A DNA stretch of 64,000 bases. It comes from Deltaproteobacteria bacterium. Its GTDB lineage: Bacteria; Myxococcota_A; UBA9160; UBA4427. Under the pieces are notes generated by a model. The model saw only the letters and a program-made list of their open reading frames with translations, had not been told where the DNA came from and did no database searches. The stretch spans positions 31,696-95,695 of the forward strand of contig NZHD01000061.1 in NCBI GenBank assembly GCA_002691205.1, given 5' to 3'. A program made the translations under genes and the position numbers. Shown piece after piece: positions 15,695 to 32,251 of this stretch. Each line of letters starts with the position of its first letter. The stretch's first letter is position 1.

Positions 15695-15744
15695 GTTTGC
15701 CCGTTCTCGCGCCTCCTTTTTTGGTGCTAGGAGATAAATATTTT

Positions 15745-16131
15745 ATGGACCCAATCGATCTGCTCGATTTTGACAAATCCGGGGGTCTCGTGACGGCGAT
15801 TGCTCAGGACGCGAAGACCGGCGAAATCTTAATGGTGGCGAACATGAATCCAGAGGCGTTTCTACGAAGTATGGAAACGGGAGAAGTGGTCTACTGGAGT
15901 CGAAGTCGGAAGAAGCTCTGGCACAAAGGTGAGGAGAGTGGCAACGTTCAGCGCATTAAAGAAGTTTTCATCGACTGCGATGGGGACGTTGTTATGTTGA
16001 AGGTCGAGCAGGTAGGTGATGCGGCATGTCACACTGGTCGGCGAAGTTGTTTCTACCGTCGGCTTGATGGAGCTGAAGTCGAAGATGTGGGCGTGATGGT
16101 TTTTGATCCGAAAGAGGTGTACGGAAAATGA
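15745..16131 (+). CDS. hisI: phosphoribosyl-AMP cyclohydrolase (monofunctional, no HisE domain)
   Basis: Motifs [17 protein letters not shown] and DCDGD..ACHTG. ATG 15745 with AGGAG upstream is preferred over the TTG at 15697. ATGA overlap with hisG. Confidence 0.9.
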
Positions 16132-17006
16132 GTGAAGGGCCAAAGCTGCGGCTTGCTCTGCCTAAGGGCAGTCTCCAGGACACGACCATCGAGGTCTTCC
16201 GGCGAGCGGGCTATTCAATTCGTGTGACAAGTCGATCGTATTACCCCTCGATTGATGACCCTGATATCGAGTGTATTTTGATTCGTCCGCAAGAAATGGC
16301 GAGGTATATTGAACAGGGCGTGATGGATTGCGGAATCACGGGACTTGACTGGGTTCTTGAAAGCGGAGCCGATGTTCAAGAACTCGCTGATTTGAAAGCG
16401 CCCCTACCGAATTATGGTTCCGTGCGCTGGATCCTAGCGGTGAAAGATCACTCGCCGTTTCAGTCTCCAAAGGACCTAGAGGGAAAGCGGATTGCGACTG
16501 AAGTCATGGGGCTGACCAAGCGGTATCTGGCCGATCAAGGTTTTACCGCTCAGCTGGAATTTTCTTGGGGAGCGACTGAGGTCAAGCCTCCCATCTTGGC
16601 GGATGCCATCGTCGATGTCACGGAGACGGGTTCAAGCTTGCGGGCCAATCAACTTCGCGTGATCGATACGCTGCTTGAGAGTACCCCGCGTTTTGTTGCG
16701 AATCATGCGGCTTGTGAAGACCCTTGGAAGCGAGCCAAGATGGATCGGATGCTGATGCTCATGCGAGGAGCCATCGCGGCGACGACTCGTGTGGGACTGT
16801 CTATGAATGTGCCTCGTGAGCGCTTAGACGCTGTGCTTAAGCTTCTGCCGCCAGGTGCGCCAACCCTGTCTCCGTTGGCGGATGAGGCTTGGGTGGATGT
16901 TTTCGTGATTATCGACGAAGTGCGTGTTCGCGAGATTGTTCCCTCTCTTCATGAAGCCGGCGCACGAGTTCTGATCGAAACAGCGCTCAGTAAGATCATC
17001 GACTGA
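16128..17006 (+). CDS. hisG: ATP phosphoribosyltransferase, long form with C-terminal regulatory domain
   Basis: 292 aa. [11 protein letters not shown]-terminus, DLTETGSSL-like [13 protein letters not shown], and a HisG_C-like tail. Confidence 0.9.
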
Positions 17007-17009
17007 CGG

Positions 17010-17597
17010 GTGAGTCGGCTTAGAAACCTGGCAGCGCTTCCCTACGACTATTTGAGCACTTTTTACTGGGGGCTCTTTTCTCCTCGCTTGACAGAGGACA
17101 GCCCCCTTGTTGTCCATCAGGCGGTGGTTTTGAATGAGGGGGCCGAAGGGCTTGAGATTTTACTCTCTGTGCGCAGTGATGTACGAGGCTGGGAATTGCC
17201 CGGGGGCCGAGTTGAAGATGGAGAGGACCCCCTAGACGGTCTGGTTCGAGAAGTCGAGGAAGAGACAGGCTTCTGGGTCGAAGCGGACCGACATGTGGGC
17301 GATTACGTCCGAACTGGCTTTCGGCCCCACACCGCTCGAGTGTATCTCTGCCATGTGATCGGGGGGCAGAGGCGGCTCAGTTCCGAGACCTTAGATGTGG
17401 GGTGGTTCGATACGACTCGATTGCCGAGGATGCTCTTGCCTTGGTACCGGCAGCCGATTGCGGATGGGCTGTCCCAGGGCGAACAAGTCCATCGGCGTTT
17501 GGAGCATCAGGGTCTGCAATCGATTTATTCGGCGGTGGCGATTGATTTTCGGATGCGGTGGTCTGGCCAGGGGGTGACGCCGGGGAGACGGTCTTGA
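17010..17597 (+). CDS. NUDIX hydrolase
   Basis: Complete Nudix box GGRVEDGEDPLDGLVREVEEETGF. GTG start 3 nt after the hisG stop. Confidence 0.8.
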   Translation: MSRLRNLAALPYDYLSTFYWGLFSPRLTEDSPLVVHQAVVLNEGAEGLEILLSVRSDVRGWELPGGRVEDGEDPLDGLVREVEEETGFWVEADRHVGDYVRTGFRPHTARVYLCHVIGGQRRLSSETLDVGWFDTTRLPRMLLPWYRQPIADGLSQGEQVHRRLEHQGLQSIYSAVAIDFRMRWSGQGVTPGRRS

Positions 17598-19066
17598 AGG
17601 TCGCACTGAGTTTTATTTTATTGGCTGTGTTGACGGGGCTCGGAATCCTGGTCTTCGGGGCGCTGAGTCTGCGGTCTTTGCCCGAGACAGAGAGGTCTCC
17701 CGTGCCCCCTCGATTCGACTCGGTTGAAATGTTAGAAAGGTTTCGAGATGGATTGCGAATTCCGACTATTTCTCAGCAACCCGGCCAGGCGACGAACGGG
17801 GCGGCCTTCTTGGCTTTCCGTGCTCTTCTGGAGCGCTCCTTTCCAAGAGTTCATGCTGAGTTAGAAAAAGAACTGATTTCGAACCATACCTTGGTCTTTA
17901 AATGGTTAGGTCAGGTGCCATCGGGTCCAGCCACGGTTTTGCTGGCGCATCAGGATGTCGTTCCCGTAGACGGCGAAAATGAGGATCAGTGGACTCACCC
18001 TCCATTCGCCGCTCAGATCGATGACGGATATGTGTGGGCTCGGGGCGCATTGGACGATAAGTTGGGATTATTTGCCATCCTCGAGGCCGTTGAAATTCTC
18101 ATTCAGGAGGGTTTTGTGCCCCAGCGAACCCTTTATCTCGTATTTGGTCATGATGAAGAACTGGGCGGGGCTCATGGAGCTTCGGAGGTTGCGCGACTCT
18201 TCGTTGAGCGAGACATCTCTCTAGGCCTTGTCCTAGACGAGGGAGGGGCTTTGACTGAGGGCCAGGTGCCCGGAGTGGACCAGCCAGTAGCCCTCGTGGG
18301 TGCGGCTGAGAAGGGTTACTTGACTGCTTTGCTGGAAGTGAAAAGTTTGGGGGGGCATTCATCGGCGCCGCCGGCGGAGACCGCAATCGGCATTTTGGCA
18401 AAGGCGATTAGCCGTCTTGAAGAGACGCCTTTTGAAGCTCATCTCGACGAGGTGGGGCGCGCTTTCTTTGAAAGAGGCATTGGTCCTTCAAGTACCTTTG
18501 GTATGCAGCTGGTGTACGGCAACCTATGGTTTTTTGAACCCATTTTGTTGAAGGTCCTCGAGTCCAACCCGACGACAGCCGCCATGGTCCGGACGACGGT
18601 TGCGCCGACCATGATGAAAGCGGGAACGAAAGAGAACGTTTTGCCGACACAGGCGATGGCGTTGGTTAATTTTCGAATTTTTCCGGGTGAAACCGAAGAA
18701 AGCGTGCTTGAAGAGGCCCGTCGTATCGTGGCCGATCCACGGGTTGCTCTGAGAGCTCTTGCGGCGGGGCGAGCACCGTCACCTGCGTCTTCGCTTGACT
18801 CCCAGGCGTGGCGGACTCTTGAGCGCACCATCTACGAGTTATTCCCCGAAGCCATCGTGGCCCCTTATTTGGTTCTCGGTGGGACCGACTCTCGTTATTT
18901 CCGTTCGCGATGTGATTGTGTGTATCGGTTCTTACCGGTACGACTCGGCGCTGACAGCATGAGTTTGATCCACGGGACGAATGAGCGAGTCGCCGCAACA
19001 AGTCTGGTTGAGGCGGCGCATTTCTACCATCAGCTCATCCAAAATGCTGACTCGGCCGCCTTCTAG
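17558..19066 (+). CDS. M20-family metallopeptidase (carboxypeptidase/dipeptidase-like), N-terminal membrane anchor
   Basis: M20 motifs LLAHQDVVP, GALDDK, and HDEELGG. The start is uncertain. A TTG at 17594 overlaps the NUDIX stop (TTGA) and would give an N-terminal TM helix KVALSFILLAVLTGLGILVFG. Confidence 0.8.
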   Translation: MVWPGGDAGETVLKVALSFILLAVLTGLGILVFGALSLRSLPETERSPVPPRFDSVEMLERFRDGLRIPTISQQPGQATNGAAFLAFRALLERSFPRVHAELEKELISNHTLVFKWLGQVPSGPATVLLAHQDVVPVDGENEDQWTHPPFAAQIDDGYVWARGALDDKLGLFAILEAVEILIQEGFVPQRTLYLVFGHDEELGGAHGASEVARLFVERDISLGLVLDEGGALTEGQVPGVDQPVALVGAAEKGYLTALLEVKSLGGHSSAPPAETAIGILAKAISRLEETPFEAHLDEVGRAFFERGIGPSSTFGMQLVYGNLWFFEPILLKVLESNPTTAAMVRTTVAPTMMKAGTKENVLPTQAMALVNFRIFPGETEESVLEEARRIVADPRVALRALAAGRAPSPASSLDSQAWRTLERTIYELFPEAIVAPYLVLGGTDSRYFRSRCDCVYRFLPVRLGADSMSLIHGTNERVAATSLVEAAHFYHQLIQNADSAAF

Positions 19067-19148: not shown

Positions 19149-19667
19149 TTAGCCGATCTGCTCTCGCAGTCCGCTGGCTTCCCATTCTTTCGAGAGCTGC
19201 TGAAGTTTGAGTGCGAACTCATCGAAGGGGTCGTCGAACGAGAGAATGATTTCCGTTGTTCGAGGGATGTCATCGCCGTTGAGAAGACCTCGGTAGCGGT
19301 TGAGATTGGCGAGAATGGCCTCGGCGACTTTGAGGGCTCGTTTTTCTGTTTTGATGAGAGGGGACTGAAGAGTGTAGACATTGTTCCGTCCCCAAAGGCT
19401 TTCGTCCCGGACGATGCCGATCTCGCGGTATACCCCATTGATCGGGTCGAAGTTGTATTCCACACGGACTTCTTTGAAGATGTCTGTGTTCCCGGTATAA
19501 AAACCACGTTCTTTCTCCACCTTGCCGAGTTCACGGCATCGGGGGCAATAGAATGTGTCTCCATGATTGAGGAGAAACACGCCTTTGGCATAGTCCTCGC
19601 AATCCGTGTTCTCGCAGTATCCGACGCCCCGCTTCATACTGGCCATCTTATGTCGCACTGCCTCCAT
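19149..19667 (-). CDS. hypothetical protein with N-terminal zinc-ribbon (CxxxC..CxxC)
   Basis: 172-aa ORF flanked by non-coding DNA. Contains CENTDCEDY...YCPRCRE. I recognise no family. The start codon is ambiguous (M1/M8/M11). Confidence 0.5.
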   Translation of the reverse strand: MEAVRHKMASMKRGVGYCENTDCEDYAKGVFLLNHGDTFYCPRCRELGKVEKERGFYTGNTDIFKEVRVEYNFDPINGVYREIGIVRDESLWGRNNVYTLQSPLIKTEKRALKVAEAILANLNRYRGLLNGDDIPRTTEIILSFDDPFDEFALKLQQLSKEWEASGLREQIG

Positions 19668-20180: not shown

Positions 20181-20387
20181 TCAACCAGTATTAGAAGACC
20201 TGTGTGCCTTCTGGACCACTGTTGATCGATGACGTGCGTTCTCGCGCGCCAAGGCGGCTCCATAGGCCACTAGGGCCGCGGCTGTCACAAAGTAGGCTGC
20301 GATGGCATATCCCATGATGGGCTCCTTGTCCTGCGGGGGGCGAACGTTTTGCTCGCCGTTCCTGATCTGGCTTTTGAGTGGAATCAC
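20181..20387 (-). CDS. ccmD: heme exporter protein CcmD (small membrane protein)
   Basis: Sits immediately after ccmC. Core MGYAIAAYFVTAAALVAYGAAL resembles the CcmD helix. Two possible starts: GTG 20387 overlapping the ccmC stop (GTGA), or ATG 20315 with GGAG 8 nt upstream. Confidence 0.55.
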   Translation of the reverse strand: MIPLKSQIRNGEQNVRPPQDKEPIMGYAIAAYFVTAAALVAYGAALARENARHRSTVVQKAHRSSNTG

Positions 20388-21145
20388 GTGTCGGGTTCTT
20401 CCAACGCCTCTTGGCGTTGCTGGAAGACCCTTCTGGCCTCGACTTCCCAGCGAAGGAGAACCAAGTAGATGAAAGCGAATCCCAGGCAGAGGTTACCCAG
20501 TAAGAACGGCCAACCCATGCCGTCCCCTAGGCTGCCGCGTTCGAGATTGTCGGGGTGCATACTGCGGTTGTCGAAGATCTCGATCACATAGTAGTTCAGT
20601 GGAATGAGGACGAGTCCAATCACTCCATAGATCGCCGCGAAGCGTGCTGTTCGAGGACCCGGCCCGCTAAAGCTACGCAGCAAGAGGTAGGCGAGGTAGA
20701 CGAACCACAAGAGAAGGGTCACGGTGAGCCGTGGATCCCATGACCACCAGCGCCCCCACGTACCCCGGGCCCAGATCGGACCTGTGACTAACATCAGTGT
20801 GCAGAAGAGAACGCCGACCTCTGCCCCTGAGATGGCAAGCCGGTCGCAATCTTCCCGGCCGCGCCAAAGATAGAGAAGACCACCAATGGCGGTAATGACG
20901 AAGCCAAGATAGGCCCCATAGGCCAAGGGTGGATGTACGTAGAGGATTTTCTGGATTACGCCTTGAGTATGATCGAGGGGGGCCTGAAAAACAGCCCAGG
21001 CGTATACGAGAGTGATGACGACGAGAAGCCAGCCGAAGGGCTGGCGCCAACGTGTCGCCTGTTGCTCCAAGGGAGACAGTCCTCCGTTGGTGGTGTGAGC
21101 GGAGTCATCTTTTGTCTGCGAAAAAGGTTTGGTCATAGGTGTCAT
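20384..21145 (-). CDS. ccmC: heme exporter protein CcmC
   Basis: WWD motif WGRWWSWDPRLT. Polytopic membrane protein. ATGA overlap with the ccmB stop. Confidence 0.9.
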   Translation of the reverse strand: MTPMTKPFSQTKDDSAHTTNGGLSPLEQQATRWRQPFGWLLVVITLVYAWAVFQAPLDHTQGVIQKILYVHPPLAYGAYLGFVITAIGGLLYLWRGREDCDRLAISGAEVGVLFCTLMLVTGPIWARGTWGRWWSWDPRLTVTLLLWFVYLAYLLLRSFSGPGPRTARFAAIYGVIGLVLIPLNYYVIEIFDNRSMHPDNLERGSLGDGMGWPFLLGNLCLGFAFIYLVLLRWEVEARRVFQQRQEALEEPDT

Positions 21146-21807
21146 TCGTCCAAGATGTATTCGAAGCCCAAGAAGGATATCACGAGGTAGATCCCATCAA
21201 TGACGATCAGTAACTGAACAGAGCTGAAGGGGATCCCTTCGCCCGCCATGACCGAAAGAGTACCGTGTACGGCGCCCGATAGGACAGGAACCAGGGCGGG
21301 GAGAAGGAGGATGGGAAGAAGAACCTCTCTTAACCGGGTGCGGACCGCCATCGCGGCCAGGAGGGTCCCAACGGAGCAAATTCCCAGGGTGGCGAGCATG
21401 ATGACAGCCGCGAGGTTGAGGGCGGAGGAGCTGAAGTCCACACCGTAAAAGAGAGCAAAGGCGAGAGCCGTGAGAGCTTGAACTAGGGAGAGCAAGATGA
21501 AGTTAGCGGCGGCTTTTCCAAGGAAAATCCAGCCTCGGCCCCCTGGAGCCAACGCCAAGCCCGAGAGCGCTTCATTTTCGAGCTCAAGGGCGAACGATCG
21601 ATTGAGGCCCAGAATCGCTGCAAAAAGATAGGCGGTCCAGAGTAGGCCTGGAGTGAGCGTTCGAAGCGTCTCGGGTCGCTGGTCGGGCAACGCAAAGTAG
21701 AAGATGACGGCCGTGAGAATCGAGAAGAGAAGCATGGCGATGACGCGTTCACGGGCTCTCCACTCTGTGACGAGATCTTTCCATAGAATGGCCAGGGCGA
21801 TATTCAT
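21142..21807 (-). CDS. ccmB: heme exporter permease CcmB
   Basis: 221-aa six-TM protein located between ccmA and ccmC. ATGA overlap with the ccmA stop. Confidence 0.85.
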   Translation of the reverse strand: MNIALAILWKDLVTEWRARERVIAMLLFSILTAVIFYFALPDQRPETLRTLTPGLLWTAYLFAAILGLNRSFALELENEALSGLALAPGGRGWIFLGKAAANFILLSLVQALTALAFALFYGVDFSSSALNLAAVIMLATLGICSVGTLLAAMAVRTRLREVLLPILLLPALVPVLSGAVHGTLSVMAGEGIPFSSVQLLIVIDGIYLVISFLGFEYILDE

Positions 21808-22502
21808 GATTGGAGGTCCAGGGCTTTCGCATAAATTTCGCTGAGGTTTTGCGGCGTGAGTTCGCCACCGGTGAGGCGCTCCGCAACTTGACCTCTCAGC
21901 ACAATCAGTGCCGTATCCGCCAGCATGGCGGCCCGTTCTACTTCATGAGTGACGAGCAACCAGCTCTGCCCGGCGTTGCGGAGTTCAATGAGCCTTTGGC
22001 TGAGCCGACTAATCGCGGGAACGTCGAGTCCGGTGAAGGGTTCGTCGAGCAGCAGCAGGGAAGGTTTGTGAACACGTGCTCGCGCAATGGCGAGCCGCTG
22101 CGCCATTCCGCGGGAGAAACCACCGGCGCGTCGTTGAGCCACTGGGCTGAGATCTTCTTCTTCAAGAAGTTGGTCCGCACGTCGAGCCGGCTTGGGCACT
22201 CCGTGAAGCCGAGCCGCGAAGATAAGGTTTTCTCGCGCGGTGAGCTCAGGGTAAAGAAGGGTGGCGTGACCCAGGTAGCCTATGGCCCGTCGATCATGAG
22301 CTGTCCCCTGAATCTCAAGAGTGCCCCGCGTCGGAGCCGCCAGTCCGGCCACGATTCGTAAGAGGGTGCTTTTGCCGGCTCCATTGGGTCCCAGCAGCGA
22401 GATGGTCTCGCCGTGATCCAAGTCGAGACTGATATTTCGCAAGGCTGTGATAGGCCCATAGGCCTTTTCGATGTCCTTAAGCCGCAGCAAAGGAGAAGTC
22501 AT
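21804..22502 (-). CDS. ccmA: heme export ABC ATPase CcmA
   Basis: Walker A GPNGAGKST, signature-like FSRGMAQRLAIA, and Walker B LLLLDEP. ATG 22502 (MTSPLLRLKDIEKAYG) overlaps the upstream stop (ATGA 22499-22502). The longer ORF-track start is rejected. Confidence 0.9.
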   Translation of the reverse strand: MTSPLLRLKDIEKAYGPITALRNISLDLDHGETISLLGPNGAGKSTLLRIVAGLAAPTRGTLEIQGTAHDRRAIGYLGHATLLYPELTARENLIFAARLHGVPKPARRADQLLEEEDLSPVAQRRAGGFSRGMAQRLAIARARVHKPSLLLLDEPFTGLDVPAISRLSQRLIELRNAGQSWLLVTHEVERAAMLADTALIVLRGQVAERLTGGELTPQNLSEIYAKALDLQS

Positions 22503-24385
22503 TCGGTCTCGCTCGAGGAGACTCCGCTTCCGCATCCGGCGCAGAATTTCCATTGCGGCTGTAAGCTTTGGCCGCACTCTACACAAAACTTTTGGGTGCC
22601 CGACTCGAGATTCTGCGTTGGGGTCGTGTCAGTTTTTTGGTTTTTAAGGGCTTCTTCTTCTTGGAGTAGTTTGACGGCACTGGCATACAATTCTTGACGG
22701 AGGCTTTGATATTCAGATTCGTCGACTTTTCCCGTTTGAAAATCATCCTCTAGGTCATTGATGGACTCATAGATGTCAGCCCGTTCACGAGCCAGCGACC
22801 CAATGGCTTCGTCCTCGAGTGGCTCTTTTCGTTGGGTACGAAGTGGTGTTGCTAGGAAAAATGCGGCCAGAACCCCGGCCAGAAGGGCTGCAATACGGGC
22901 GCCGTTGGTGGAGACTCCACGGCTCCCGATAGGGGTAAGAGTGAGGCTGATCGTCTCTCCAGGATTTACTTGGTAGGCTTGCCGATGGAGATAGAAACGT
23001 GTGCCCTGCTTGAAGGGGCGTTGGCGATGTAGACGGTCGCTGTCAATCACGACGCCATTGTCGGCGACAAGAACATTCAAAAGGTCGACTTCTTTTGACA
23101 GACTGAGATCTAGGCGGGCTTCTCCGCGGACCGGCAATCGGAAGCGATAACCGAGCGTGGACGTTCCTGGGGGCAGGGGACCGCGGACATCAAGTCCCCC
23201 TTCTTCTCCAGGCACGACGCCAAAGGCGCCGGTGGAGCCAGCGAGGCCTTGGAATTCGGCGCCCGGGGGAAGGGCGATGTGGAGCAGCGATTCTCCAGGA
23301 GCGGCCAGCAGTCGAACATCCGTGTCGACTTCCACCGTGATTTCCGCGTTGACTCGGACTTCGGTGTCATCGTGGTCCACCCAAAAGTCGCTTCGGCTGA
23401 CTTGGAGTTGTGAGTCATCCGCTGAACTCGGAGGGGCTGTGAGTGAAAACTTCTGTATTCCGCCCGGTTGGACGGCCGGGATTTTGAAACGACGATAATT
23501 CTGATCGCCAATTTCTAGGATTTCACCCGTGTCGATCCATTCTTCATTTCCAGGAGTCGGCAGACGGGTCGGGATGAGAACCGAAGCGACGGGGGCACCA
23601 GAGGGAACAAGCTGCTCGACGTCGACTTGGTCACTCCCGGGGCTTTTCTTGGCAAGGAAGCCATATCGAAGTTCCTGATCGCCCGGATAGAAAGGTCCCC
23701 ATGCGTCGATGAAGGTCGACTCTTCGCCCTCTCTTCGAAGGAGGCCTTCGCTCGCTCCGAGAAACTCGGCGATTTCGTCAGGCAAACGAGCTTCGAAAAA
23801 AGGGGACTGCCCGTCTCTGTCGGTCTCCTGAATAAAGATGACCGCGTCTGAACGGTTGGTGATCTTCTGTGAGACCTGCACAAGAAGCTGGTCGCCGATC
23901 CAGTCGAGGAGCCAGCGCGTCTCGGAGATCTCAAGTGCGGATCTTTTTGCGTGGACGGTTTGAAGCTGTATTGCAGCGTCTATTTCAGTCTCTCCGGGCT
24001 GAAATACTACGCGTTTTCCAAACGGGACTTCGGCGATGCGCGTGCCTAGGAGATAAATGACATCCGGTGAATTGTTGAGGTTGGTAAAAACATACTCACC
24101 GGAGAGATTGGTTTCAGCATTAGCCAAGCCTGGACTGCCGTCGGGTTGCAGCGCGTACAGGACGAGTGGAAGGTTATCAATGGTTTGGCCGGGTTCGGCG
24201 GCGATCACACGGGCACGGATCACTCCGGGGCCGGGGGCCGGGGGGCCGACTTGGCCAGTGCTGGGCGAAGTCACTTGCTGGGGGATCTGAGACTGCGCCG
24301 GGCTAACAACGGCCCAGCCCAGGGCCAGAATGAGGAGACCGTATCGAAACTTCCTAACCCCCTGGAAGACCGTCAGTAAATTCAC
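22499..24385 (-). CDS. uncharacterised ccm-operon protein: signal peptide, CarboxypepD_reg-like beta domain, large periplasmic region, one TM, cytoplasmic CcmI-like helical segment, C-terminal zinc ribbon
   Basis: GTG 24385 overlaps the ccmF stop (GTGA) and its own stop overlaps the ccmA ATG. N-terminus NLLTVFQGVRKFRYGLLILALGWAVVSPAQS. TM helix ARIAALLAGVLAAFFLATPL. Zinc ribbon CVECG-x10-CAGCG (22532-22585). Confidence 0.7.
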   Translation of the reverse strand: MNLLTVFQGVRKFRYGLLILALGWAVVSPAQSQIPQQVTSPSTGQVGPPAPGPGVIRARVIAAEPGQTIDNLPLVLYALQPDGSPGLANAETNLSGEYVFTNLNNSPDVIYLLGTRIAEVPFGKRVVFQPGETEIDAAIQLQTVHAKRSALEISETRWLLDWIGDQLLVQVSQKITNRSDAVIFIQETDRDGQSPFFEARLPDEIAEFLGASEGLLRREGEESTFIDAWGPFYPGDQELRYGFLAKKSPGSDQVDVEQLVPSGAPVASVLIPTRLPTPGNEEWIDTGEILEIGDQNYRRFKIPAVQPGGIQKFSLTAPPSSADDSQLQVSRSDFWVDHDDTEVRVNAEITVEVDTDVRLLAAPGESLLHIALPPGAEFQGLAGSTGAFGVVPGEEGGLDVRGPLPPGTSTLGYRFRLPVRGEARLDLSLSKEVDLLNVLVADNGVVIDSDRLHRQRPFKQGTRFYLHRQAYQVNPGETISLTLTPIGSRGVSTNGARIAALLAGVLAAFFLATPLRTQRKEPLEDEAIGSLARERADIYESINDLEDDFQTGKVDESEYQSLRQELYASAVKLLQEEEALKNQKTDTTPTQNLESGTQKFCVECGQSLQPQWKFCAGCGSGVSSSETE

Positions 24386-26352
24386 GTAGCGGGTCCCGCG
24401 CTCCCGCGAGGGGGATGTGGCCAAAGAATGGCTACACCGCCTAGAGCGAAGAGAATCGAACCGGCCCAAATCCAGTTCACCAGAGGGTTTCGGTAGATTT
24501 TGATTGTGGCGGAGCCGTCTTCTTCAATGGCATTGATAATGACGTAGATATCTTCCATCCAAGTCGAGTAGATGGAAGGAATGGTCGAAGGTTGGTCTTC
24601 AAGCCAGTAGATTCGCCTCTGAGGTTCCATGATGGCCAGTGGATTTTCATCACGAAAAAGAGCGAGCCTCGCGGTGGCTCCGCCATAGTGCTGCTCGGTG
24701 ATGGGCTTCGCCGTGAGGTACTCGATGCGGTATTCGCTCATTTCAACCGATTGGCCGGGCTTTACGTTTTCAAGCTGTTCGATGTTGAAAACGCTCCCCG
24801 AAATCCCGAGGAGCATGACGACGACACCGAGATGGATAATGTAGCCGCCATAGCGTCTTTGGTTTTTGGAAAGCAGGGTGGCGAAAGCCGCGACTACGGA
24901 TTCATCATGGGCGCGACGGCGAGCCCGAACGGCCTGAATGTATTCTTGGCCGATGGTAGCGGTGGTGAAGGCGCAGAGCCCCCAGCACGTCAACGACCAG
25001 TAACCGACTTGGTTGCGAAAGATGAGGGCCAAAATGACCGTGACCACAGCACCTGTAACGAGGGGCCATTTGAACTGCCGGCGAAGGCTAGCCACGCTGG
25101 CCTTGCGCCACGCGATGAGGGGGCCCACCCCGGTCAGAAAAAGGAGAATTAACGCGAGAGGTCCGGTGACTTGATTAAAGAAGTGTGGCCCGAGGGTTAA
25201 TCGGTCTCCGCTGAAGTACTCGGAGAAAACCGGCAGCAGCGTAAAACCGAAAACCACAGCGAGAAGAACCATGAAGACCCAGTTGTTGAGGATGAAACTT
25301 GATTCCCGAGAGAGAACGGATTCAAGTTTACGAGGGCTTGCGAGTTCTTTTCGACGGGCAAAGACAGCAATGCCAAAGACGACGACTGAGACCACGACGT
25401 AGCCCAGGAAAAGAGGTTTGTACCAACCCGCATCCGTGAAAGCGTGCACTGACTGGACGATTCCACTTCGAGTGAGAAAGGTTCCAAATAGGCAGAGCGA
25501 ATAGGTCAGTCCAATGAGGATGACATTCCAGGTTTTGAGCATGTCGCGTTTTTCCTGGATCATCACGGAGTGAAGGTAGGCTGTGGCGGCGAGCCACGGC
25601 ATCAGGGAGGCATTTTCGACAGGATCCCAAGCCCAGTAGCCCCCCCAACCCAAGACTTCGTAGGCCCAACGCCCGCCGAGTACAATGCCAGCGCCCAGTG
25701 CAAGCCAAGCAAAGAGGCTCCAGCGTCGCGTAGTCTTGAACCATTCCGTACCCAGACGTCCCGTGACCAGTGCAGCGAAGGCAAAGGCGAAAGGCGTGGC
25801 GAAGCCTGTAAAGCCCAAGTAGAGCATCACTGGATGGATCAGCATGACGGGGTGTTGAAGGAGAGGGTTGAGGCCTTGGCCATCGGAAAGAACTTCCCCG
25901 GGTGGCACGCGTTCAAACGGGCTTGTTAGGAATTCGAGGAGAAAAAGGAAGAAGCCAGCATTGGCGAGCAAAACCACTGCGACCCATGGAATCAAAGCCG
26001 ACTGGCTTCGGCGGTTGGCAAACACGCCAGCGGATCCAAAAGCCATTAGGAGGAAAGCCCATAGAAGAAGGGAACCCGCCTGCCCCCCCCACAGAGCCCC
26101 AAGTCGGTAGGGGAGCGTCATGCTTCGCGCAGAGTGGCGAGCGACGTATTCCATGGAGAAGTCATTCATGCCCAGTGACCAGAATAGACTGATCATGGCG
26201 ATTCCCAGGAAGACGAGCACGGTGTAGACAGAGCGCTCCGCGACTTGTCCCCAGTCGGCGCGTCGAGTGACGCCTGAGCCGATGCCTGCAAGAATCCCAA
26301 AGATAGCCGCAAGGAGTGCGAATCGGATAGCGTAAAGACCTATTTCGGACAT
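24382..26352 (-). CDS. ccmF: cytochrome c heme lyase subunit CcmF
   Basis: 656-aa polytopic membrane protein with WWD motif WGGYWAWDPVENASLMPW. Confidence 0.9.
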   Translation of the reverse strand: MSEIGLYAIRFALLAAIFGILAGIGSGVTRRADWGQVAERSVYTVLVFLGIAMISLFWSLGMNDFSMEYVARHSARSMTLPYRLGALWGGQAGSLLLWAFLLMAFGSAGVFANRRSQSALIPWVAVVLLANAGFFLFLLEFLTSPFERVPPGEVLSDGQGLNPLLQHPVMLIHPVMLYLGFTGFATPFAFAFAALVTGRLGTEWFKTTRRWSLFAWLALGAGIVLGGRWAYEVLGWGGYWAWDPVENASLMPWLAATAYLHSVMIQEKRDMLKTWNVILIGLTYSLCLFGTFLTRSGIVQSVHAFTDAGWYKPLFLGYVVVSVVVFGIAVFARRKELASPRKLESVLSRESSFILNNWVFMVLLAVVFGFTLLPVFSEYFSGDRLTLGPHFFNQVTGPLALILLFLTGVGPLIAWRKASVASLRRQFKWPLVTGAVVTVILALIFRNQVGYWSLTCWGLCAFTTATIGQEYIQAVRARRRAHDESVVAAFATLLSKNQRRYGGYIIHLGVVVMLLGISGSVFNIEQLENVKPGQSVEMSEYRIEYLTAKPITEQHYGGATARLALFRDENPLAIMEPQRRIYWLEDQPSTIPSIYSTWMEDIYVIINAIEEDGSATIKIYRNPLVNWIWAGSILFALGGVAILWPHPPRGSAGPAT

Positions 26353-26433: not shown

Positions 26434-26907
26434 TTACAGCACGACTTCGGGTTCACCCGATGACGTGCCTTCGGCGGCGGCGGCCGCTTCAAATTTGGAA
26501 GGGCACTTCGCCATGAGGTTGTCGGCGAGAAAGAGTGTGCGTCCCTGCTGGTGTTCGATTCGCCCCTCGACCACGACTTCGGCTCCGTCGCGAAAGAGGT
26601 CGGGCGTTTCAAGGCCCAAGTAGAGGACTTCAAGCGTTCGGTTTGAGGCTAACCCGGAATGGGGTGGAGTGCCTTGGACCGAAAAGACGACTTTCTTCGC
26701 GTCGAGGTCGCGATCGATCGAATCATTGGCCACATATCCGTGAACTCGGACCGGGCGTCCTTCAAGACCATCCACATTGGCCATGAATTCGTCGAGATCT
26801 TGGTAATACTGAAAGGCCGCTTGACCCTGAATATTTGTGTAGGCGTACCAGCCCAATAGACCCACCACGATGGCCGCCCCGAGTGCGATCTGTAGACCTT
26901 TGGACAT
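26434..26907 (-). CDS. ccmE: heme chaperone CcmE, variant with Cys in place of the heme-binding His
   Basis: N-terminal anchor followed by an OB-fold (RVHGYV, DLFRDGAEVVVEG). C-terminal LMAKCPSKFE aligns with the canonical LAKHDENY. Confidence 0.85.
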   Translation of the reverse strand: MSKGLQIALGAAIVVGLLGWYAYTNIQGQAAFQYYQDLDEFMANVDGLEGRPVRVHGYVANDSIDRDLDAKKVVFSVQGTPPHSGLASNRTLEVLYLGLETPDLFRDGAEVVVEGRIEHQQGRTLFLADNLMAKCPSKFEAAAAAEGTSSGEPEVVL

Positions 26908-27105: not shown

Positions 27106-28299
27106 ATGACTGACTTTACGCCCACCCGAACCGCTTCGAGACTCGCCGGTTTGACGCCTTTTCTGGTCATGGAGATCATGGAGAGAGCTCTAGACTTGGA
27201 GGCCCGTGGACGATCTGTGGTTCATCTCGAGATTGGCGAACCCGATGCTTCGCCTCCAAGAGCGGGCCTCGACGCAGCCGCAGAGGCTCTGCAGTTGGGC
27301 CAGACCCGATATACCGATAGCTGTGGCCTTTTGGAACTGCGACAGGCCATTGCAGACGACTACCAAGCCCGGTGTGGATTACGGCCCGACCCGGCTACGA
27401 TTTTGGTCACTCCCGGAACGTCCCCCGCCATGCTTTTAGCCTTCTCTCTTCTCCTAGATTCGGGAGGTGAAGTGATCATGCCCGAACCCTACTACGCCTG
27501 TTACCCAAATTTCGTCCGGTATTGCGGTGGTACGGTGGTTCCCTGCGTGACTCGTGCAGACGAAAGCTTTGCCGTTGATCCCGAACGCATTCGGAAATTA
27601 GTGACGCCTCAAACTCGCGCGATTGTTCTCGCTTCGCCTTCGAACCCGACGGGTGCAGTACAGAGTTTGGAAGTCATGCGTGCCCTCGCAGAGCTTGGTC
27701 CGCCTTTAGTTTCTGATGAGATTTACCACGGCCTCGTTTATGGGGAAGGTGAAGCTCATTCGGCGCTGGGATTGAGCGACGAAGTTTTTGTTCTGGACGG
27801 GATCTCGAAACGCTATTCGATGACGGGCTTCAGGTTGGGTTGGTTGGTGGCTCCTCCATGGGCCATGCCTTCGCTACGTATCATGCAACAAAATTTCTTC
27901 ATTTCGGCAGCTGAGCCTTCGCAACGAGCGGGATTGGCTGCTCTTCGTTCTGGGGAAGGCACCCCCTCGGCTATGCGGAGGGAGTACTCTGCGCGTCGTG
28001 ATCAACTCGTGGAGGGGCTCCGTGAATTGGGCTTCGGGATTCCTCACTCGCCCCAGGGAAGCTTTTATGTTCTCGCGGACGCTCAGCGTTACGGTCGCGA
28101 TTCTCTGGCGCTGGCGTATGGTCTGCTTGAAGAAGCCGGAGTCGCCGTGGCGCCTGGCATCGATTTTGGGCCTTCTTCTGAGGGCATGCTGAGGTTTAGC
28201 TATGCGGTGAGTGAAGCCTCGATTCGTGAAGCTTTGAAGAGGATGGGTCGTGTTTTGCCGGAGTGGGAGAAAAAGAATGAGAAGGAGGCTCAGAGATGA
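27106..28299 (+). CDS. class I/II PLP-dependent aminotransferase (aspartate/aromatic-like)
   Basis: PLP-lysine motif SKRYSMTGFRLGW. SPSNPTG motif. Confidence 0.85.
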   Translation: MTDFTPTRTASRLAGLTPFLVMEIMERALDLEARGRSVVHLEIGEPDASPPRAGLDAAAEALQLGQTRYTDSCGLLELRQAIADDYQARCGLRPDPATILVTPGTSPAMLLAFSLLLDSGGEVIMPEPYYACYPNFVRYCGGTVVPCVTRADESFAVDPERIRKLVTPQTRAIVLASPSNPTGAVQSLEVMRALAELGPPLVSDEIYHGLVYGEGEAHSALGLSDEVFVLDGISKRYSMTGFRLGWLVAPPWAMPSLRIMQQNFFISAAEPSQRAGLAALRSGEGTPSAMRREYSARRDQLVEGLRELGFGIPHSPQGSFYVLADAQRYGRDSLALAYGLLEEAGVAVAPGIDFGPSSEGMLRFSYAVSEASIREALKRMGRVLPEWEKKNEKEAQR

Positions 28300-28895
28300 A
28301 GATTCGTCGAGCTGAACTGCTCGTTTCTTGTCCGAAGGCTTCGGTCTTTCCAGAAGGTGAACGTCCCGAGGTCGCGTTCTTGGGCCGTTCAAATGTCGGC
28401 AAGTCAAGTTTGTTGAATGCACTCGTGCAGCGGAAACAGCTTGCCCACACGAGTTCAACTCCAGGCAAGACCCGAATGATCCATTTTTTTGAAGTGGATA
28501 CTGAGAAGGATGCCTTTACGCTCGTAGACCTTCCTGGTTACGGGTGGGCGCGGGTTTCTAAAAAAGAGCGAGGGAGTTGGCAGCACTTGGTGGAAAGCTA
28601 TCTGGAGAATCGCCCCCAACTCTGCGCCGCAATTTTGTTGCAGGATGTGCGAAGAGATTTTTCAGAAGATGAAACGCTGCTTCTTGATTGGTTGGCTCAG
28701 CGTGATGTGGATGCTCTAGTGGTTTTTACGAAAGCCGACAAACTAAAGACCATGCAGCGAAAGAAAAGGATTGCATTGCTGCGGAAGCAACTCGGAGACC
28801 GTACGACACCGACTCTGGTCACCTCTTCTCAAAAGCGTCTAGGACTTGAAGAAGTCTGGAGGGCTATTCGAGAGCGAGGTCGATCAGAGGATTAG
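28296..28895 (+). CDS. engB: ribosome-biogenesis GTPase YihA/EngB
   Basis: G1 GRSNVGKSSLLNAL, G3 DLPGYG, and G4 TKADK. ATGA overlap with the upstream stop. Confidence 0.9.
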   Translation: MKIRRAELLVSCPKASVFPEGERPEVAFLGRSNVGKSSLLNALVQRKQLAHTSSTPGKTRMIHFFEVDTEKDAFTLVDLPGYGWARVSKKERGSWQHLVESYLENRPQLCAAILLQDVRRDFSEDETLLLDWLAQRDVDALVVFTKADKLKTMQRKKRIALLRKQLGDRTTPTLVTSSQKRLGLEEVWRAIRERGRSED

Positions 28896-28911
28896 CCGGT
28901 TCGGGATACGA

Positions 28912-29298
28912 CTAAAGAGAGAATGGAAGACGAAAGACAAAGCCAATGCCGGTTTTGGGATCATCGGGAAGGCGAGGCGTTCGGCCGATTCGAACTGGCC
29001 GGATCGGAATTTGAAGAAGTTCTTGGCGCCAGCGTTCGAGCACCGTGGGCGCAGTGGTTGTCTCCGGAACCACCAAGAGAGGGCGTGTGAGCCTGGAACT
29101 CATCACAACTGGAATGACTCTCTGCGATCGCGTAGCCCAGTTCCAGAACGCTCTTCCTGGGGAAGCAGAAAACGTACGTTCGCTTGGAGGAGTCTTCTCG
29201 GTCCATTTCGGGACATCCAGGGCGTAGACTGGGGTCGCGAGTCCGGAGAAGGAAAAGGCGAGAGCCAGGCTTAAAATGATAGAGCGCTGTTTTGTCAT
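28912..29298 (-). CDS. hypothetical secreted protein
   Basis: Internal ATG 29298 with GAGGA upstream gives the signal peptide MTKQRSIILSLALAFSFSGLATPVYA. I recognise no family. The alternative-frame ORFs here look like shadows. Confidence 0.4.
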   Translation of the reverse strand: MTKQRSIILSLALAFSFSGLATPVYALDVPKWTEKTPPSERTFSASPGRAFWNWATRSQRVIPVVMSSRLTRPLLVVPETTTAPTVLERWRQELLQIPIRPVRIGRTPRLPDDPKTGIGFVFRLPFSL

Positions 29299-29508
29299 GG
29301 GGGTCCTCGATTGCATTTTTGGAGGAATGCAGGGGTTGCCCATACATCGGCAGCGGGGCCCACGACAAAAGGGGTCTTTTTGTGAACCCATTTCTGTGGC
29401 CCCGCCCGAGGGGAAAAATCACTTATTCTCCAAGACTTGCGGGTCGGCCACCGATTTTATTCACATCCACGAAAGAGGCGAAGGGGTTGTCTTCCTAGGC
29501 AGAGGGCT

Positions 29509-30279
29509 CTAGCGAAAGAGGTCTTCGCTGGGATTTCTGATGACTTGGGTTAAGTCGCCGTCGCCGGTAATGGGAATGCCTGTAATGAAAACCGCAGGGA
29601 TCCCCGAACTCTTCGTCATGAGGAGGCCTGCGGCCGCGGCGAGTTGGTCCACGGTGGCCATGGTCGTGACCTGAAGTTCTCTCCCTTCGAGATCAACGCC
29701 GCCTCTCGCGTCATCGATGGGCGCGATTCCAGCTGATCCAATCGCGACGTCGACGAGGCCGTTCCGCCATGGCCGACCAAAGGTATCGCTCACCACGATG
29801 GCTACATTGTTGTGGCCGAGCGCTTCAAGGCCCGATCTGAGACGCGTCGCTGACGCATCGCTGTCGAGAGGCAGCAGGACCGCCATATCTTCGCCCGGAG
29901 CATTGGACAAGTCGACGCCCGCATTTGCGCAAACCAGTCCGTGCCGCGTTTCGCAAATTAGGACTCCGTGTCCGCGACGGACGATTCGTACGGTTTCGCC
30001 AAGAACGACTTCGACTTGACGAGGGTCTTTGCCGTGTTCTTCGGCAATGGCAATGGCTTCTGATCCTGGGGTGACCTTCGCGAGTTCGACGATTCGGCCC
30101 TCGGTTTTTGAAATGATTTTCTGGCACACAACGAGAGCTCCGTGATTCAGATCAACTTCGTTGATCTCGGCCGCCGAGTGGATGAGCGCGGCGAGGTCGT
30201 CTCCCGGATGGATGTTGGGAATGCCCGTGAGCGGAGTAATCTCAATGTTTTTCTGAGGCGTTTTAGAGGATGACATCAT
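29509..30279 (-). CDS. cofE: coenzyme F420-0:L-glutamate ligase, stand-alone CofE type
   Basis: 257 aa from ATGATG (30274-30279) with AAGGA upstream. Motifs VVCQKIISKTEGR, CANAGVDLSN, and VVSDTFGRPWRNG. The 138-aa N-terminal extension in the ORF track overlaps cofC and is rejected. Confidence 0.85.
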   Translation of the reverse strand: MMSSSKTPQKNIEITPLTGIPNIHPGDDLAALIHSAAEINEVDLNHGALVVCQKIISKTEGRIVELAKVTPGSEAIAIAEEHGKDPRQVEVVLGETVRIVRRGHGVLICETRHGLVCANAGVDLSNAPGEDMAVLLPLDSDASATRLRSGLEALGHNNVAIVVSDTFGRPWRNGLVDVAIGSAGIAPIDDARGGVDLEGRELQVTTMATVDQLAAAAGLLMTKSSGIPAVFITGIPITGDGDLTQVIRNPSEDLFR

Positions 30280-30295
30280 TCGAAGGTTCCTTGAT

Positions 30296-30940
30296 TCACT
30301 TGGGCCAACCGATCTTGGCGAGGGTTGCGCGCGTGGCGGTTCCGCTTCCTTTGCTGTTCCAGAATTGATCAATGTCGGCGACTGAGTCGAGATCGAGATG
30401 AAGGGACGGGACGTTGACCTTTTTAAAGGGGACGGAGCCTTTTTGCGCGGCTTCTTCGTGAAGTGCGGCGCTATTCGGCCCGAAGCAGGAGGGGATCGCA
30501 GAGTGTGGGTTGCGGAGGAGGGCCGAGGTGCCCCCGTCGCTTGACGGCGCGAGAGCGACTGCGGGGCTTTGGGTTTCTTTGAGTGCGTCGAAAAGGCTTT
30601 GCAACTCAGAGGGCTGGGCATCCGGCAGGTCGCCCAGAACAATGAGTAGGGCATCGTTTTCTGCGAGTCCGAGTTTCTCAGGCGAATGGTCAATGGCTGA
30701 TTTTAGGCTTGAGTCGGGGCCATGGAGGGCTTCGGCGCCAAGCCTTTCGGCCAAGGCGGCGGCTCGATCGTCGGGCGTCGCCACAGCGACGCGGTCCAGT
30801 GCCGGTGTGGCCAACAGGGCAGTCAGCAGGTCTTGGAGCATCGAAAGCGAGAGGGCCTCAAGTTCAGTCTGAGCGAACGTTTTAGACAGACGAGACTTGC
30901 TCTTCGTGAGCGATTTGACGGGAATGACCGCACTGTTCAT
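30296..30940 (-). CDS. cofC: 2-phospho-L-lactate (or PEP/3PG) guanylyltransferase CofC/FbiD
   Basis: N-terminus AVIPVKSLTKSKSRLS with a MobA-like fold. ATGA overlap with the cofD stop (30937-30940). Confidence 0.8.
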   Translation of the reverse strand: MNSAVIPVKSLTKSKSRLSKTFAQTELEALSLSMLQDLLTALLATPALDRVAVATPDDRAAALAERLGAEALHGPDSSLKSAIDHSPEKLGLAENDALLIVLGDLPDAQPSELQSLFDALKETQSPAVALAPSSDGGTSALLRNPHSAIPSCFGPNSAALHEEAAQKGSVPFKKVNVPSLHLDLDSVADIDQFWNSKGSGTATRATLAKIGWPK

Positions 30941-31917
30941 GGGGAGGTCTCGGCAAGTTCAAGAGCCGCACGGGCCAGTCGCCCCGCGGCCTGAGCGTCG
31001 ACCATAATCGAGTCCGTGACCCGCGTGCGGAGCCCAAGGTCCTGGATGGCCTCTTCAAGGTCTGCATCTTTCGTGTCGAGCACGTAGCCGTCGATTAAAT
31101 CAGCATAGTGTCGGGCCACGCCGAGTGCGGAAACCTCAACCCCGATGCCCCGAAGGAGCGGCGTAGCGGGTCCCTTGATGGGAGCGCCGCCGACAATGGG
31201 CGAGATCGCGACGCACGGGGCTGGACTGGCCAGAATGGCATCTCGAATACCCGGGACAGCGAGAAGGGGGCCGATAGAAACCACCGGATTGCTGGGGCAG
31301 AAAAGAAGGACCTGCGCCTGAGCGATCGCCTGAAGCACACCGGGTCCCGGTGTTGCACTCTGCGCCGCGCTGAGGTTGACGGATCGGACCCGGTCGGGGG
31401 CCCCTTCCCGAATCATGTAATCCTCAAAATGGAGAGTCACGCCATCGGTGAGTTCGACCAAGGTGGGGCAGGGAGATTCGGACATCGGCAGGATGTGTGT
31501 TTCGACGCCGAGCTTTTCGCGGAGCTCGGCGATGGTCTGTGAGAGTCCGTGGCCTTGACGCAATTGGAGTGTTCGGTGCAAGCAGTGGGCAAAGTCGCGA
31601 TCTCCCAAACGGAACCACGTTTCGTGGCCGAGTTGAGACAATGTGTCCACGAGTTGGTACGTGTCTCCCATTAAGCCATATCCTTGGGCGTCATCAATGA
31701 GGCCGGCCAGGGTGTATGTCACAATGTCGAGGTCGGGCGCGACGTGCACGCCGTAAAACTCGCGGTCATCCCCAGTGTTCACAATGGCTGTCACTGACTC
31801 AGCGGGGACCTCACGGACGAGCCCGCGGAGAAAGCGAGCGGCTCCGACCCCCCCACAAAAAGCCACTACGTTGGGATGAGACATCATGGATGAATTCCCC
31901 GGCGTCTTTGGGTTCAT
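30937..31917 (-). CDS. cofD: LPPG:FO 2-phospho-L-lactate transferase CofD
   Basis: Motifs VVAFCGGVGAARFLRGL, NTGDD, and PDLD. ATG 31917 has GAGGG upstream; the alternative is ATGATG at 31882-31887. The longer ORF-track start overlaps the upstream small ORF. Confidence 0.85.
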   Translation of the reverse strand: MNPKTPGNSSMMSHPNVVAFCGGVGAARFLRGLVREVPAESVTAIVNTGDDREFYGVHVAPDLDIVTYTLAGLIDDAQGYGLMGDTYQLVDTLSQLGHETWFRLGDRDFAHCLHRTLQLRQGHGLSQTIAELREKLGVETHILPMSESPCPTLVELTDGVTLHFEDYMIREGAPDRVRSVNLSAAQSATPGPGVLQAIAQAQVLLFCPSNPVVSIGPLLAVPGIRDAILASPAPCVAISPIVGGAPIKGPATPLLRGIGVEVSALGVARHYADLIDGYVLDTKDADLEEAIQDLGLRTRVTDSIMVDAQAAGRLARAALELAETSP

Positions 31918-31927
31918 TTCCGCACCC

Positions 31928-32251
31928 TCATTGGGTTTGGCCGGGCGGATCGTCTTGAGCGGTTGGCTTTTCTTCTTGTGCCAGGATCGCTTTGAGTTGG
32001 GCTTGGGCCCGCGGCATCCGCTCCGCAATCGCTTGAATTTCTGGGTTTTGATGCATGGAATTCACTTGTTCGCTTTGGTCGGGCAAGGCCAGCCATCCAA
32101 TCAGGTAGGCTTGATCTCCCGCTAATTGGTCTTTTAGAATTTCGACTTCACGGGGCTCTTCCGCATCGACCCACAAGGGGCTTCCGAGGCACAGCATACC
32201 GCTGAGCCCGACCCCCAATAGACCGGTTTGAATCTTTTTATAGTTCAGCAT
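31928..32251 (-). CDS. hypothetical small secreted protein (107 aa)
   Basis: Signal-peptide-like N-terminus MLNYKKIQTGLLGVGLSGMLCLGSPLWVDA. It ends 10 nt before the preferred cofD start. No clear SD. Confidence 0.45.
   Translation of the reverse strand: MLNYKKIQTGLLGVGLSGMLCLGSPLWVDAEEPREVEILKDQLAGDQAYLIGWLALPDQSEQVNSMHQNPEIQAIAERMPRAQAQLKAILAQEEKPTAQDDPPGQTQ

Follow-up and report, generated by a model that had tools for sequence, protein, structure and literature searches.

Protein X, a candidate CcmI-equivalent subunit in a CcmH-less, Cys-CcmE cytochrome c maturation operon

How does a cytochrome c synthase capture and position its apocytochrome when both CcmH and a CcmI of the tetratricopeptide-repeat (TPR) type are missing? 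This is an open question for the lyase of System I* (PMC9084895), the variant cytochrome c maturation (Ccm) machinery with a Cys-type CcmE that is described for Desulfovibrio and archaea (Allen 2006 and Goddard 2010, summarised in PMC3601427). Archaeal System I* has been reported without CcmI or CcmH, and a study of Methanosarcina asks whether the missing subunits have been replaced by unrecognised proteins (PMC9084895). The question is raised here by a 64-kb stretch of DNA from a Deltaproteobacteria bacterium (contig NZHD01000061.1; hereafter the window), in which a gene for a 628-residue protein lies between ccmF and ccmA of a ccm operon. Gene and protein are both labelled X. Taking sequence profiles, a structural model and gene context together, X is probably an accessory subunit equivalent to CcmI, in a holocytochrome c synthase of the Cys-CcmE (System I*) type that lacks CcmH. 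A literature search found no published description of the X family, nor of its two kinds of separate relative presented below, the free-standing mini-CcmI proteins and a split gene pair. Part of X is homologous to the known protein CcmI, and System I* is likewise a known system.

The CcmI-type anchor of X

The longest open reading frame (ORF) containing X, 22499..24469, begins with TTG; the GTG at 24385, also the start used for the corresponding NCBI protein, gives 628 residues. That protein (P0001, 'hypothetical protein CL917_08395 [Deltaproteobacteria bacterium]') comes from a metagenome-assembled genome (MAG) and is equal in length to X, with 100% identity and 100% coverage. The first-pass annotation of this DNA had the coordinates of the gene right and left its strand, minus, unstated. 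The gene and the parts of its product are as follows, where D1 to D3 are periplasmic domains and TM stands for transmembrane.

22499..24385, minus: gene X with GTG start and TGA stop, 628 aa (ORF and translation)
24290..24385, minus: putative Sec signal peptide, ~residues 1-32 (positively charged n-region, hydrophobic core, A-Q-S|Q, read by eye)
23966..24226, minus: D1, residues 54-140, seven-stranded transthyretin/CarboxypepD_reg-like beta sandwich (AlphaFold2 strands with pLDDT >90)
23438..23935, minus: D2, residues 151-316, large beta sandwich of the M1-aminopeptidase N-domain/Ost1 type (AlphaFold2, hhalign, Foldseek)
22931..23407, minus: D3, residues 327-485, second beta sandwich, membrane-proximal (AlphaFold2, invariant columns)
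22850..22909, minus: single TM helix, residues 493-512 (AlphaFold2; aligns with CcmI TM1)
22631..22810, minus: cytoplasmic helical hairpin, residues 526-585, with a YESI.DL..D.ETGK turn (AlphaFold2 helices 526-551 and 556-585; TIGR03142)
22526..22594, minus: cytoplasmic C4 zinc ribbon, residues 598-620 (C601/C604/C615/C618, CxxC-x10-CxxC)

The AlphaFold2 model of X, computed from an alignment of 21 family sequences to which all counts out of 21 refer, has a mean pLDDT of 83.9. It displays an N-terminal hydrophobic leader, a Pro-rich linker, the all-beta domains D1-D3 (residues 54-485), the TM helix, the hairpin and the zinc ribbon, and so reproduces the architecture first read from the letters: a signal peptide, about 450 residues of beta-rich sequence, one TM helix, a helical segment and a zinc ribbon. 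The leader is modelled as a helix over residues 10-26 with low pLDDT, and a signal peptide end of the A-x-A|Q type is conserved in the homologues.

The sole NCBIfam match of X is TIGR03142, the N-terminal domain of CcmI, which aligns residues 498-586 with profile positions 4-86 (E 1.8e-4); the same region is matched in 18/21 family members, with a best E of 7.8e-7. Independent support comes from a profile of three PGAP-annotated CcmI N-termini encoded in plasmid-borne ccm loci of Rhizobium phaseoli, Dinoroseobacter shibae and Martelella mediterranea. Compared with the TM and hairpin columns of the X family, this profile gives an hhalign match of 96.4% (E 1e-9, score 54.1 over 72 columns) that is collinear across TM1, the P-L motif and the entire loop. 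The reversed CcmI alignment scores 13.5, 100 shuffles of all columns score 11.1±1.8, and 100 shuffles of the loop with the TM helix left in place score 21.2±2.1 with a maximum of 29.2; because these controls lie far below 54.1, the match is not an artefact of composition or of the TM helix. The three-sequence profile is needed, single sequences giving weak matches to the same columns (34% for D. shibae CcmI, 5% for R. phaseoli CcmI). Other comparators were set aside: E. coli CcmH and the fused CcmH-CcmI of Cupriavidus are useless here for want of the long cytoplasmic loop, a Paracoccus locus has no adjacent ccmI, and a Sphingomonas protein encoded after ccmH lacks the loop. A PDB sequence search with the X family and the TM-hairpin profiles returned only a zinc-ribbon match and an EF-hand-like match to caltractin (E 0.29), the latter judged to be chance.

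The TM1 of CcmI runs from the periplasm to the cytoplasm and is followed by a cytoplasmic loop (PMC3884852), an arrangement with which the predicted topology of X agrees, since its TM helix comes after the periplasmic domains and before the hairpin. X and CcmI/CycH proteins would share a TM helix with the N terminus outside and the loop inside, a P-L-(R) motif, invariant in X as P514-L515-R516 after the helix, and a cytoplasmic hairpin with a D...G-(I/L) turn, at which D544, D548 and T551-G552-K553 are invariant in X. The likeness extends to gene position, as ccmI adjoins ccmF or ccmH and X directly follows ccmF in all loci examined, and, by analogy, to a presumed function as an apocytochrome-handling accessory of CcmF. 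Judged from the profile comparisons, the TM helix and cytoplasmic hairpin of X are homologous to the N-terminal module of CcmI. The helical segment had been likened to CcmI before, and this part of the first-pass annotation is borne out by the TIGR03142 and hhalign matches and their clean shuffle controls. Its suggestion of a purely non-orthologous replacement does not survive them, in that only the periplasmic part of X is foreign to CcmI.

Outside the anchor the two proteins differ in both order and content. The periplasmic module of X is all-beta and N-terminal to the TM helix, whereas that of CcmI is a TPR domain C-terminal to a second TM helix; X moreover needs a cleavable signal peptide and adds a C-terminal C4 zinc ribbon. 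Neither the sequence nor the model of X contains a hydrophobic segment after residue 585, and hence no second TM helix, and TPR families find no match at E<=1 in any of the 21 family members; the periplasmic part of X is modelled as all-beta.

Conservation of the locus and separate relatives of X

A word-indexed search returned 37 full-length relatives of X from Myxococcota/'Deltaproteobacteria' MAGs, named in the databases as hypothetical or 'zinc ribbon domain-containing'. An exhaustive profile search with the X family yielded 297 clusters (50% identity) at E<=1e-30; among the top 150 clusters listed, full-length members have mostly 600-670 residues and the remainder are shorter partial sequences. 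Scanning one genome per species located 63 X loci, all in MAGs labelled Myxococcota or bearing older or mistaken labels. Every locus that extends far enough carries ccmE-ccmF-X-ccmA-ccmB-ccmC on one strand, with X identity down to ~30%.

The overlaps of X with its neighbours that had been noted at first pass are both present in the window sequence: the X GTG (24385-24383) overlaps the ccmF TGA (24384-24382) in a 4-nucleotide GTGA, and the ccmA ATG (22502-22500) is overlapped by the X TGA (22501-22499) in a 4-nucleotide ATGA. Among the related loci, the 4-nucleotide overlap of the ccmF stop with an in-frame X start recurs in 46/55, with 8 more within -1..+2, and that of the X stop with the ccmA start in 58/61. 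X is therefore, as had been proposed, a translationally coupled and conserved member of the ccm operon, whose order is invariant in ~60 loci. Co-occurrence with a CxxxY/CxxxF-type CcmE, the check suggested for it, gives a uniform result: CPSKF is encoded by every one of the 48 CcmE genes found beside X (48/48). The CPSKF-type F form of Cys-CcmE has been described as the rarer one, with only four cases reported (PMC3601427). Its presence in 48/48 X loci and in Conexibacter-type loci makes it appear lineage-typical rather than sporadic.

The anchor module also exists by itself. A search with the TM-hairpin alignment of X found 65 small proteins of 57-150 residues, here called mini-CcmI. They comprise just the helix-hairpin module, extended in some by a zinc ribbon, and free-standing proteins of 88-148 residues match the X module with an hhalign value of 99.5% (E 5e-23). 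Four of the small proteins match TIGR03142, P0097 at 28.0 bits. Their genes directly follow ccmF or ccmH in 7/7 contexts looked up, which is the position of ccmI after ccmH in the canonical operons of D. shibae and M. mediterranea. These contexts comprise ccmE-ccmF-mini-secG in Conexibacter sp. SYSU D00693 (Actinomycetota) and three unlabelled contigs like it; ccmE-F-H-mini-ccmA-B-C-D on the contig that encodes P0082, the NCBI copy of which bears the label Candidatus Polarisedimenticolaceae, a group of Acidobacteriota; a CcmF_C fragment followed by a mini-CcmI gene; and the L071 operon described below. CcmE is of the Cys type wherever it was read in these loci (CPSKF, CPSKY or CASKY), with CPSKF in the Conexibacter-type ones. 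From the seven contexts it follows that the module tracks ccmF/ccmH, and not ccmABC.

Two side observations concern these small proteins. A mini-CcmI gene (~92 codons) is directly followed by secG at L068:7001-7514, L069:7001-7544, L070:7001-7532 and L083:6001-6534, an order that puts a lyase accessory beside a Sec translocon subunit. P0061 and P0070 give weak NCBIfam matches (E ~0.003) to the N terminus of a 601-residue Myxococcus 'MXAN_5187 family protein', which may be another family built on the same TM-hairpin module or may reflect chance.

In a further set of operons both halves of X occur as separate neighbouring genes. The L071, L074 and L076 operons read ccmE-F-H, then a mini-CcmI gene with or without a zinc ribbon, then a gene for a protein of 320-420 residues, then ccmA-B; in L071 and L076, ccmC and a 50-residue ccmD-like ORF follow ccmB. 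In the 320-420-residue protein, a signal peptide is followed by a CarboxypepD_reg domain, one beta sandwich and, at the C terminus, a TM anchor. At least 115 relatives of this protein exist; named members of its family come from Acidobacteria/Bryobacterales MAGs, and the acidobacterial homologues carry precomputed PF13620. A 25-sequence profile of this protein aligns with X residues 56-290, that is D1 and D2 (hhalign 97.9%, E 5e-13), and is needed for the match, P0295 alone giving a weak 52% against the X family alignment. The mini-CcmI half matches X with 96.7%. In Foldseek, the model of the split-pair protein (pLDDT 87.1) finds domain I of M1 aminopeptidases at E ~2e-5 and ribophorin I at 3e-5 and 9e-5. 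A distant paralogue, P0352 (35% identity over 60% of the query), stands outside any ccm context, so the ccm link holds for the core family only.

On this profile evidence X unites in a single gene what in another lineage are two separate neighbouring genes, with D3 in addition. The split pair resembles X in the homology of both its halves, in occupying the same slot upstream of ccmA and in the Cys-type CcmE of L071 (CASKY). It differs in comprising two genes in the opposite order, in a periplasmic protein that has its own C-terminal TM anchor and no D3, and in operons that also encode CcmH, whereas the X operon lacks ccmH. The earlier argument that X might stand in because ccmH is missing is weakened by this comparison: since the split relatives co-occur with CcmH, X is not a CcmH substitute.

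Periplasmic module and possible role

D1 carries the invariant motif LYAL.PDG.PG, and its Foldseek matches are transthyretin and CnaB. The CarboxypepD_reg-like domain assigned to this region at first pass has support in its fold and in its relatives, the AlphaFold2 model being consistent with it and PF13620 being matched in 10/21 family members (best E 5.8e-5); in the window X protein itself PF13620 gives no match. Most of the polar positions that never vary lie in the D3 region (D323, D339, N437, D442, H453, R456, R463, Y465, H467 and E477). At the opposite end of the protein, the four zinc-ribbon Cys are invariant in 21/21 homologues and Zn_Ribbon_1 (PF13240; also the zinc-ribbon model PF13248) is matched in 21/21 members, with a best E of 5.2e-9, the window X ribbon scoring 19.0 bits, below the cutoff of 25. 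The zinc-ribbon models and CarboxypepD_reg are the only Pfam families found in the 21 members. The periplasmic part was said earlier to lack CxxCH and LRCxxC; in fact it contains no Cys at all, and the family has no conserved Cys column there, which excludes a thiol function of the CcmH/CcmG type. CcmH-like, CcmG-like and cytochrome-like readings of X were rejected on this ground.

When the whole model is searched against the PDB with Foldseek, the top eight matches are to Ost1/ribophorin I (RPN1), with E values of 9e-14 to 8e-11, probability 1.0 and 450-570 aligned columns, followed by the VIT region of ITIH1, M1 aminopeptidase domain I and the transthyretin/CnaB matches of D1. Ost1, an accessory subunit of bitopic type whose two lumenal beta domains are alike, binds peptide beside a membrane enzyme (PMC7226087). 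Besides providing the best structural match in the PDB, it resembles X in having tandem lumenal or periplasmic beta sandwiches, one TM helix and cytosolic helices, and in its part as an accessory of a polytopic membrane enzyme by which Sec-translocated polypeptides are modified while unfolded. The two also differ: there is no shared sequence family (Ribophorin_I, PF04597, has no Pfam match at E<=1 in any of the 21 members), the global TM-score is low, the enzyme partner is another one, and X has an extra transthyretin-like domain and the zinc ribbon. The likeness is one of fold and architecture only, and the relationship may be convergent. The outcome that had been named as telling against a Ccm function, a clear match to an unrelated family such as an adhesin or protease, did not appear.

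The operon of X is like System I* in its Cys-CcmE (here CPSKF), in carrying neither ccmH nor ccmG, and in having a CcmI-type gene as part of the system, and unlike it in that the TPR domain, which the CcmI of described System I* has, is replaced in X. In System I*, CcmI enhances cytochrome production without being essential for it (PMC3601427). In general, CcmI is part of a CcmFHI complex in which its periplasmic domain chaperones the apocytochrome; for Rhodobacter capsulatus CcmI, binding has been reported to apoCcmE in addition to apocytochrome, and a large CcmFHI-CcmE-CcmABCD supercomplex has been suggested (PMC3884852). By analogy with these proteins, X would be a CcmF-docked, apocytochrome-handling subunit with its TPR domain replaced, its binding of both CcmF and apocytochrome being inferred. 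Exported through its Sec signal peptide, X would remain anchored by one TM helix, with ~450 residues in the periplasm folded as one transthyretin-like domain and two beta sandwiches of the Ost1/M1-aminopeptidase-N type. The TM helix and hairpin would dock onto CcmF, by analogy with the CcmFHI complex of R. capsulatus, and the beta module would sit above the WWD/heme site that CcmF exposes to the periplasm. In this position it could hold the unfolded Sec-translocated apocytochrome, or a CcmE-apocytochrome pair, for heme ligation, a task that falls to the TPR domain where CcmI is canonical. The zinc ribbon on the cytoplasmic side may be an optional appendage of the anchor module.

Several points weigh against this assignment. 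The window X scores 21.8 bits with TIGR03142, for which the curated cutoff is 29.3, and the member scores listed are likewise all below the cutoff. X has neither the second TM helix nor the TPR domain of CcmI, and its chaperone role is drawn from position and analogy. D3, which is the most conserved part and contains the invariant His, Arg and Asp residues, has no counterpart in the split relatives. Beta sandwiches are common, Foldseek TM-scores between X and Ost1 are low (0.18-0.27) because the domain orientations differ, and Ost1 itself is said not to have a chaperone-like fold (PMC7226087).

The invariant residues of D3 lend themselves to another explanation, in which X handles heme or holo-CcmE rather than apocytochrome, and D3 (His453, His467, Arg456, Arg463 and Asp) would transiently ligate heme or help to resolve the Cys-heme thioether of CPSKF CcmE at CcmF. 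That most invariant polar residues, two His included, cluster in D3, that X co-occurs with the rare CPSKF CcmE in all 48 loci and that R. capsulatus CcmI is reported to bind apoCcmE (PMC3884852) are all compatible with such a role. Yet Conexibacter-type operons combine a CPSKF CcmE with only a mini-CcmI of ~90 residues and no D3, and neither Pfam nor Foldseek finds a known heme-binding motif or fold in X. The window CcmF is moreover canonical, with the WWD motif and the four conserved His all in place; X is therefore not making up for a defective lyase, and a missing heme ligand in CcmF was rejected as a reading. A heme-handling X is, on balance, unlikely. We give about the same low weight to a purely structural role, in which X would stabilize CcmF or bridge CcmF and CcmABCD through its TM helix, hairpin and zinc ribbon, its beta domains serving as a spacer or envelope anchor with no substrate contact. 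The gene, placed exactly between ccmF and ccmA, is coupled to each of them, the suggested CcmFHI-CcmE-CcmABCD supercomplex (PMC3884852) would accommodate a bridging subunit, and the cytoplasmic ribbon could contact the CcmA ATPase. The mini modules, however, follow ccmF even where ccmABC is not adjacent, as in ccmE-ccmF-mini-secG, and a specific ligand is suggested by how strongly D3 conserves polar residues of the surface type.

It is most improbable that X is unrelated to cytochrome c maturation, as an adhesin-like or peptidase-regulatory envelope protein that merely lies inside the operon. CarboxypepD_reg and Ig-like sandwiches are indeed common in adhesins and peptidases, and the distant paralogue P0352 is found outside the ccm context, but neither the position nor the coupling of X varies across ~60 species-level genomes, even at 30% identity, the anchor shares homology with CcmI, and both halves of X are ccm-linked elsewhere (Conexibacter, Polarisedimenticolaceae and Acidobacteria-type contigs).

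The CcmI-equivalent role of X can be extended, much more tentatively, to its relatives. X and the split relatives would then be unrecognised accessory subunits of Cys-CcmE synthases in multiple lineages, with a minimal CcmI as the true conserved partner of CcmF and an Ost1/M1-N-type beta module that took over substrate presentation from the TPR domain, via D3 in the CcmH-less Myxococcota. If so, the likeness to ribophorin I would reflect a shared way of handing unfolded chains, once translocated by Sec, to a modifying enzyme embedded in the membrane. The fused protein of Myxococcota, the split pair of Acidobacteriota-type operons and the minimal CcmI of ~90 residues (for example in Conexibacter), at present annotated as hypothetical or 'zinc ribbon domain-containing', offer testable candidates. 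They would set the conserved part of CcmI that docks on CcmF apart from an interchangeable substrate-binding domain, improve the annotation of ccm operons in MAGs, and give compact constructs for structural work on CcmF and its accessories.

The operon and its surroundings

Pfam and NCBIfam identify the neighbours of X as CcmE, CcmF, CcmA, CcmB and CcmC. All are encoded on the same strand, together with a small ORF that is likely ccmD.

26434..26907, minus: ccmE, Cys-type (CPSKF), System I* variant (PF03100 1.1e-19)
24382..26352, minus: ccmF (heme lyase), 656 aa, stop overlapping the X start (PF16327 3.4e-61, PF01578)
21804..22502, minus: ccmA (ABC ATPase), ATG overlapping the X stop (TIGR01189, PF00005)
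21142..21807, minus: ccmB (PF03379 2.4e-29)
20384..21145, minus: ccmC (TIGR01191 3.9e-32)
20181..20315, minus: candidate ccmD, 44 aa, single TM helix (MGYAIAAYFVTAAALVAYGAALAREN...), small ORF directly 3' of ccmC with no family model match

The window CcmE reads LMAKCPSKF. Neither ccmH nor ccmG is present in the operon, the absence of ccmH and ccmI referring to the operon and the window, and the 64-kb window has no ORF with CxxCH, LRCxxC or WCxPC. The ccmD candidate finds a tblastn match after ccmC in only 10 related loci, because the ORF is short and divergent.

Downstream of the operon, at 19149-19667 on the minus strand of the window, lies a gene for a 172-residue cytoplasmic protein with an N-terminal C-x4-C-x17-C-x2-C motif, for which no Pfam or NCBIfam family was matched. 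It is found 0.4-1.4 kb downstream of ccmC/ccmD in 50/54 related loci. Its protein keeps 90-96% amino acid identity, compared with 53-79% for CcmC and 30-56% for X in the same loci, and its nucleotide identity of ~82% is confined to the coding sequence, a pattern that points to extreme purifying selection on the protein. On one metagenome contig (L002:10495-12152), ccmB is followed by a gene of the 172-residue type with no ccmC detectable between them, unlike all other loci.

The block around the ccm operon (27106-32028 and 12977-19066 of the window) shows synteny with both L001 and L002. To one side of the operon it contains cofD and genes for an F420-0:gamma-glutamyl ligase, an EngB-type GTPase and an aminotransferase, and to the other those for an M20 peptidase (assigned by synteny with L001), a NUDIX protein and a PlsB-type acyltransferase, together with hisG and hisI.

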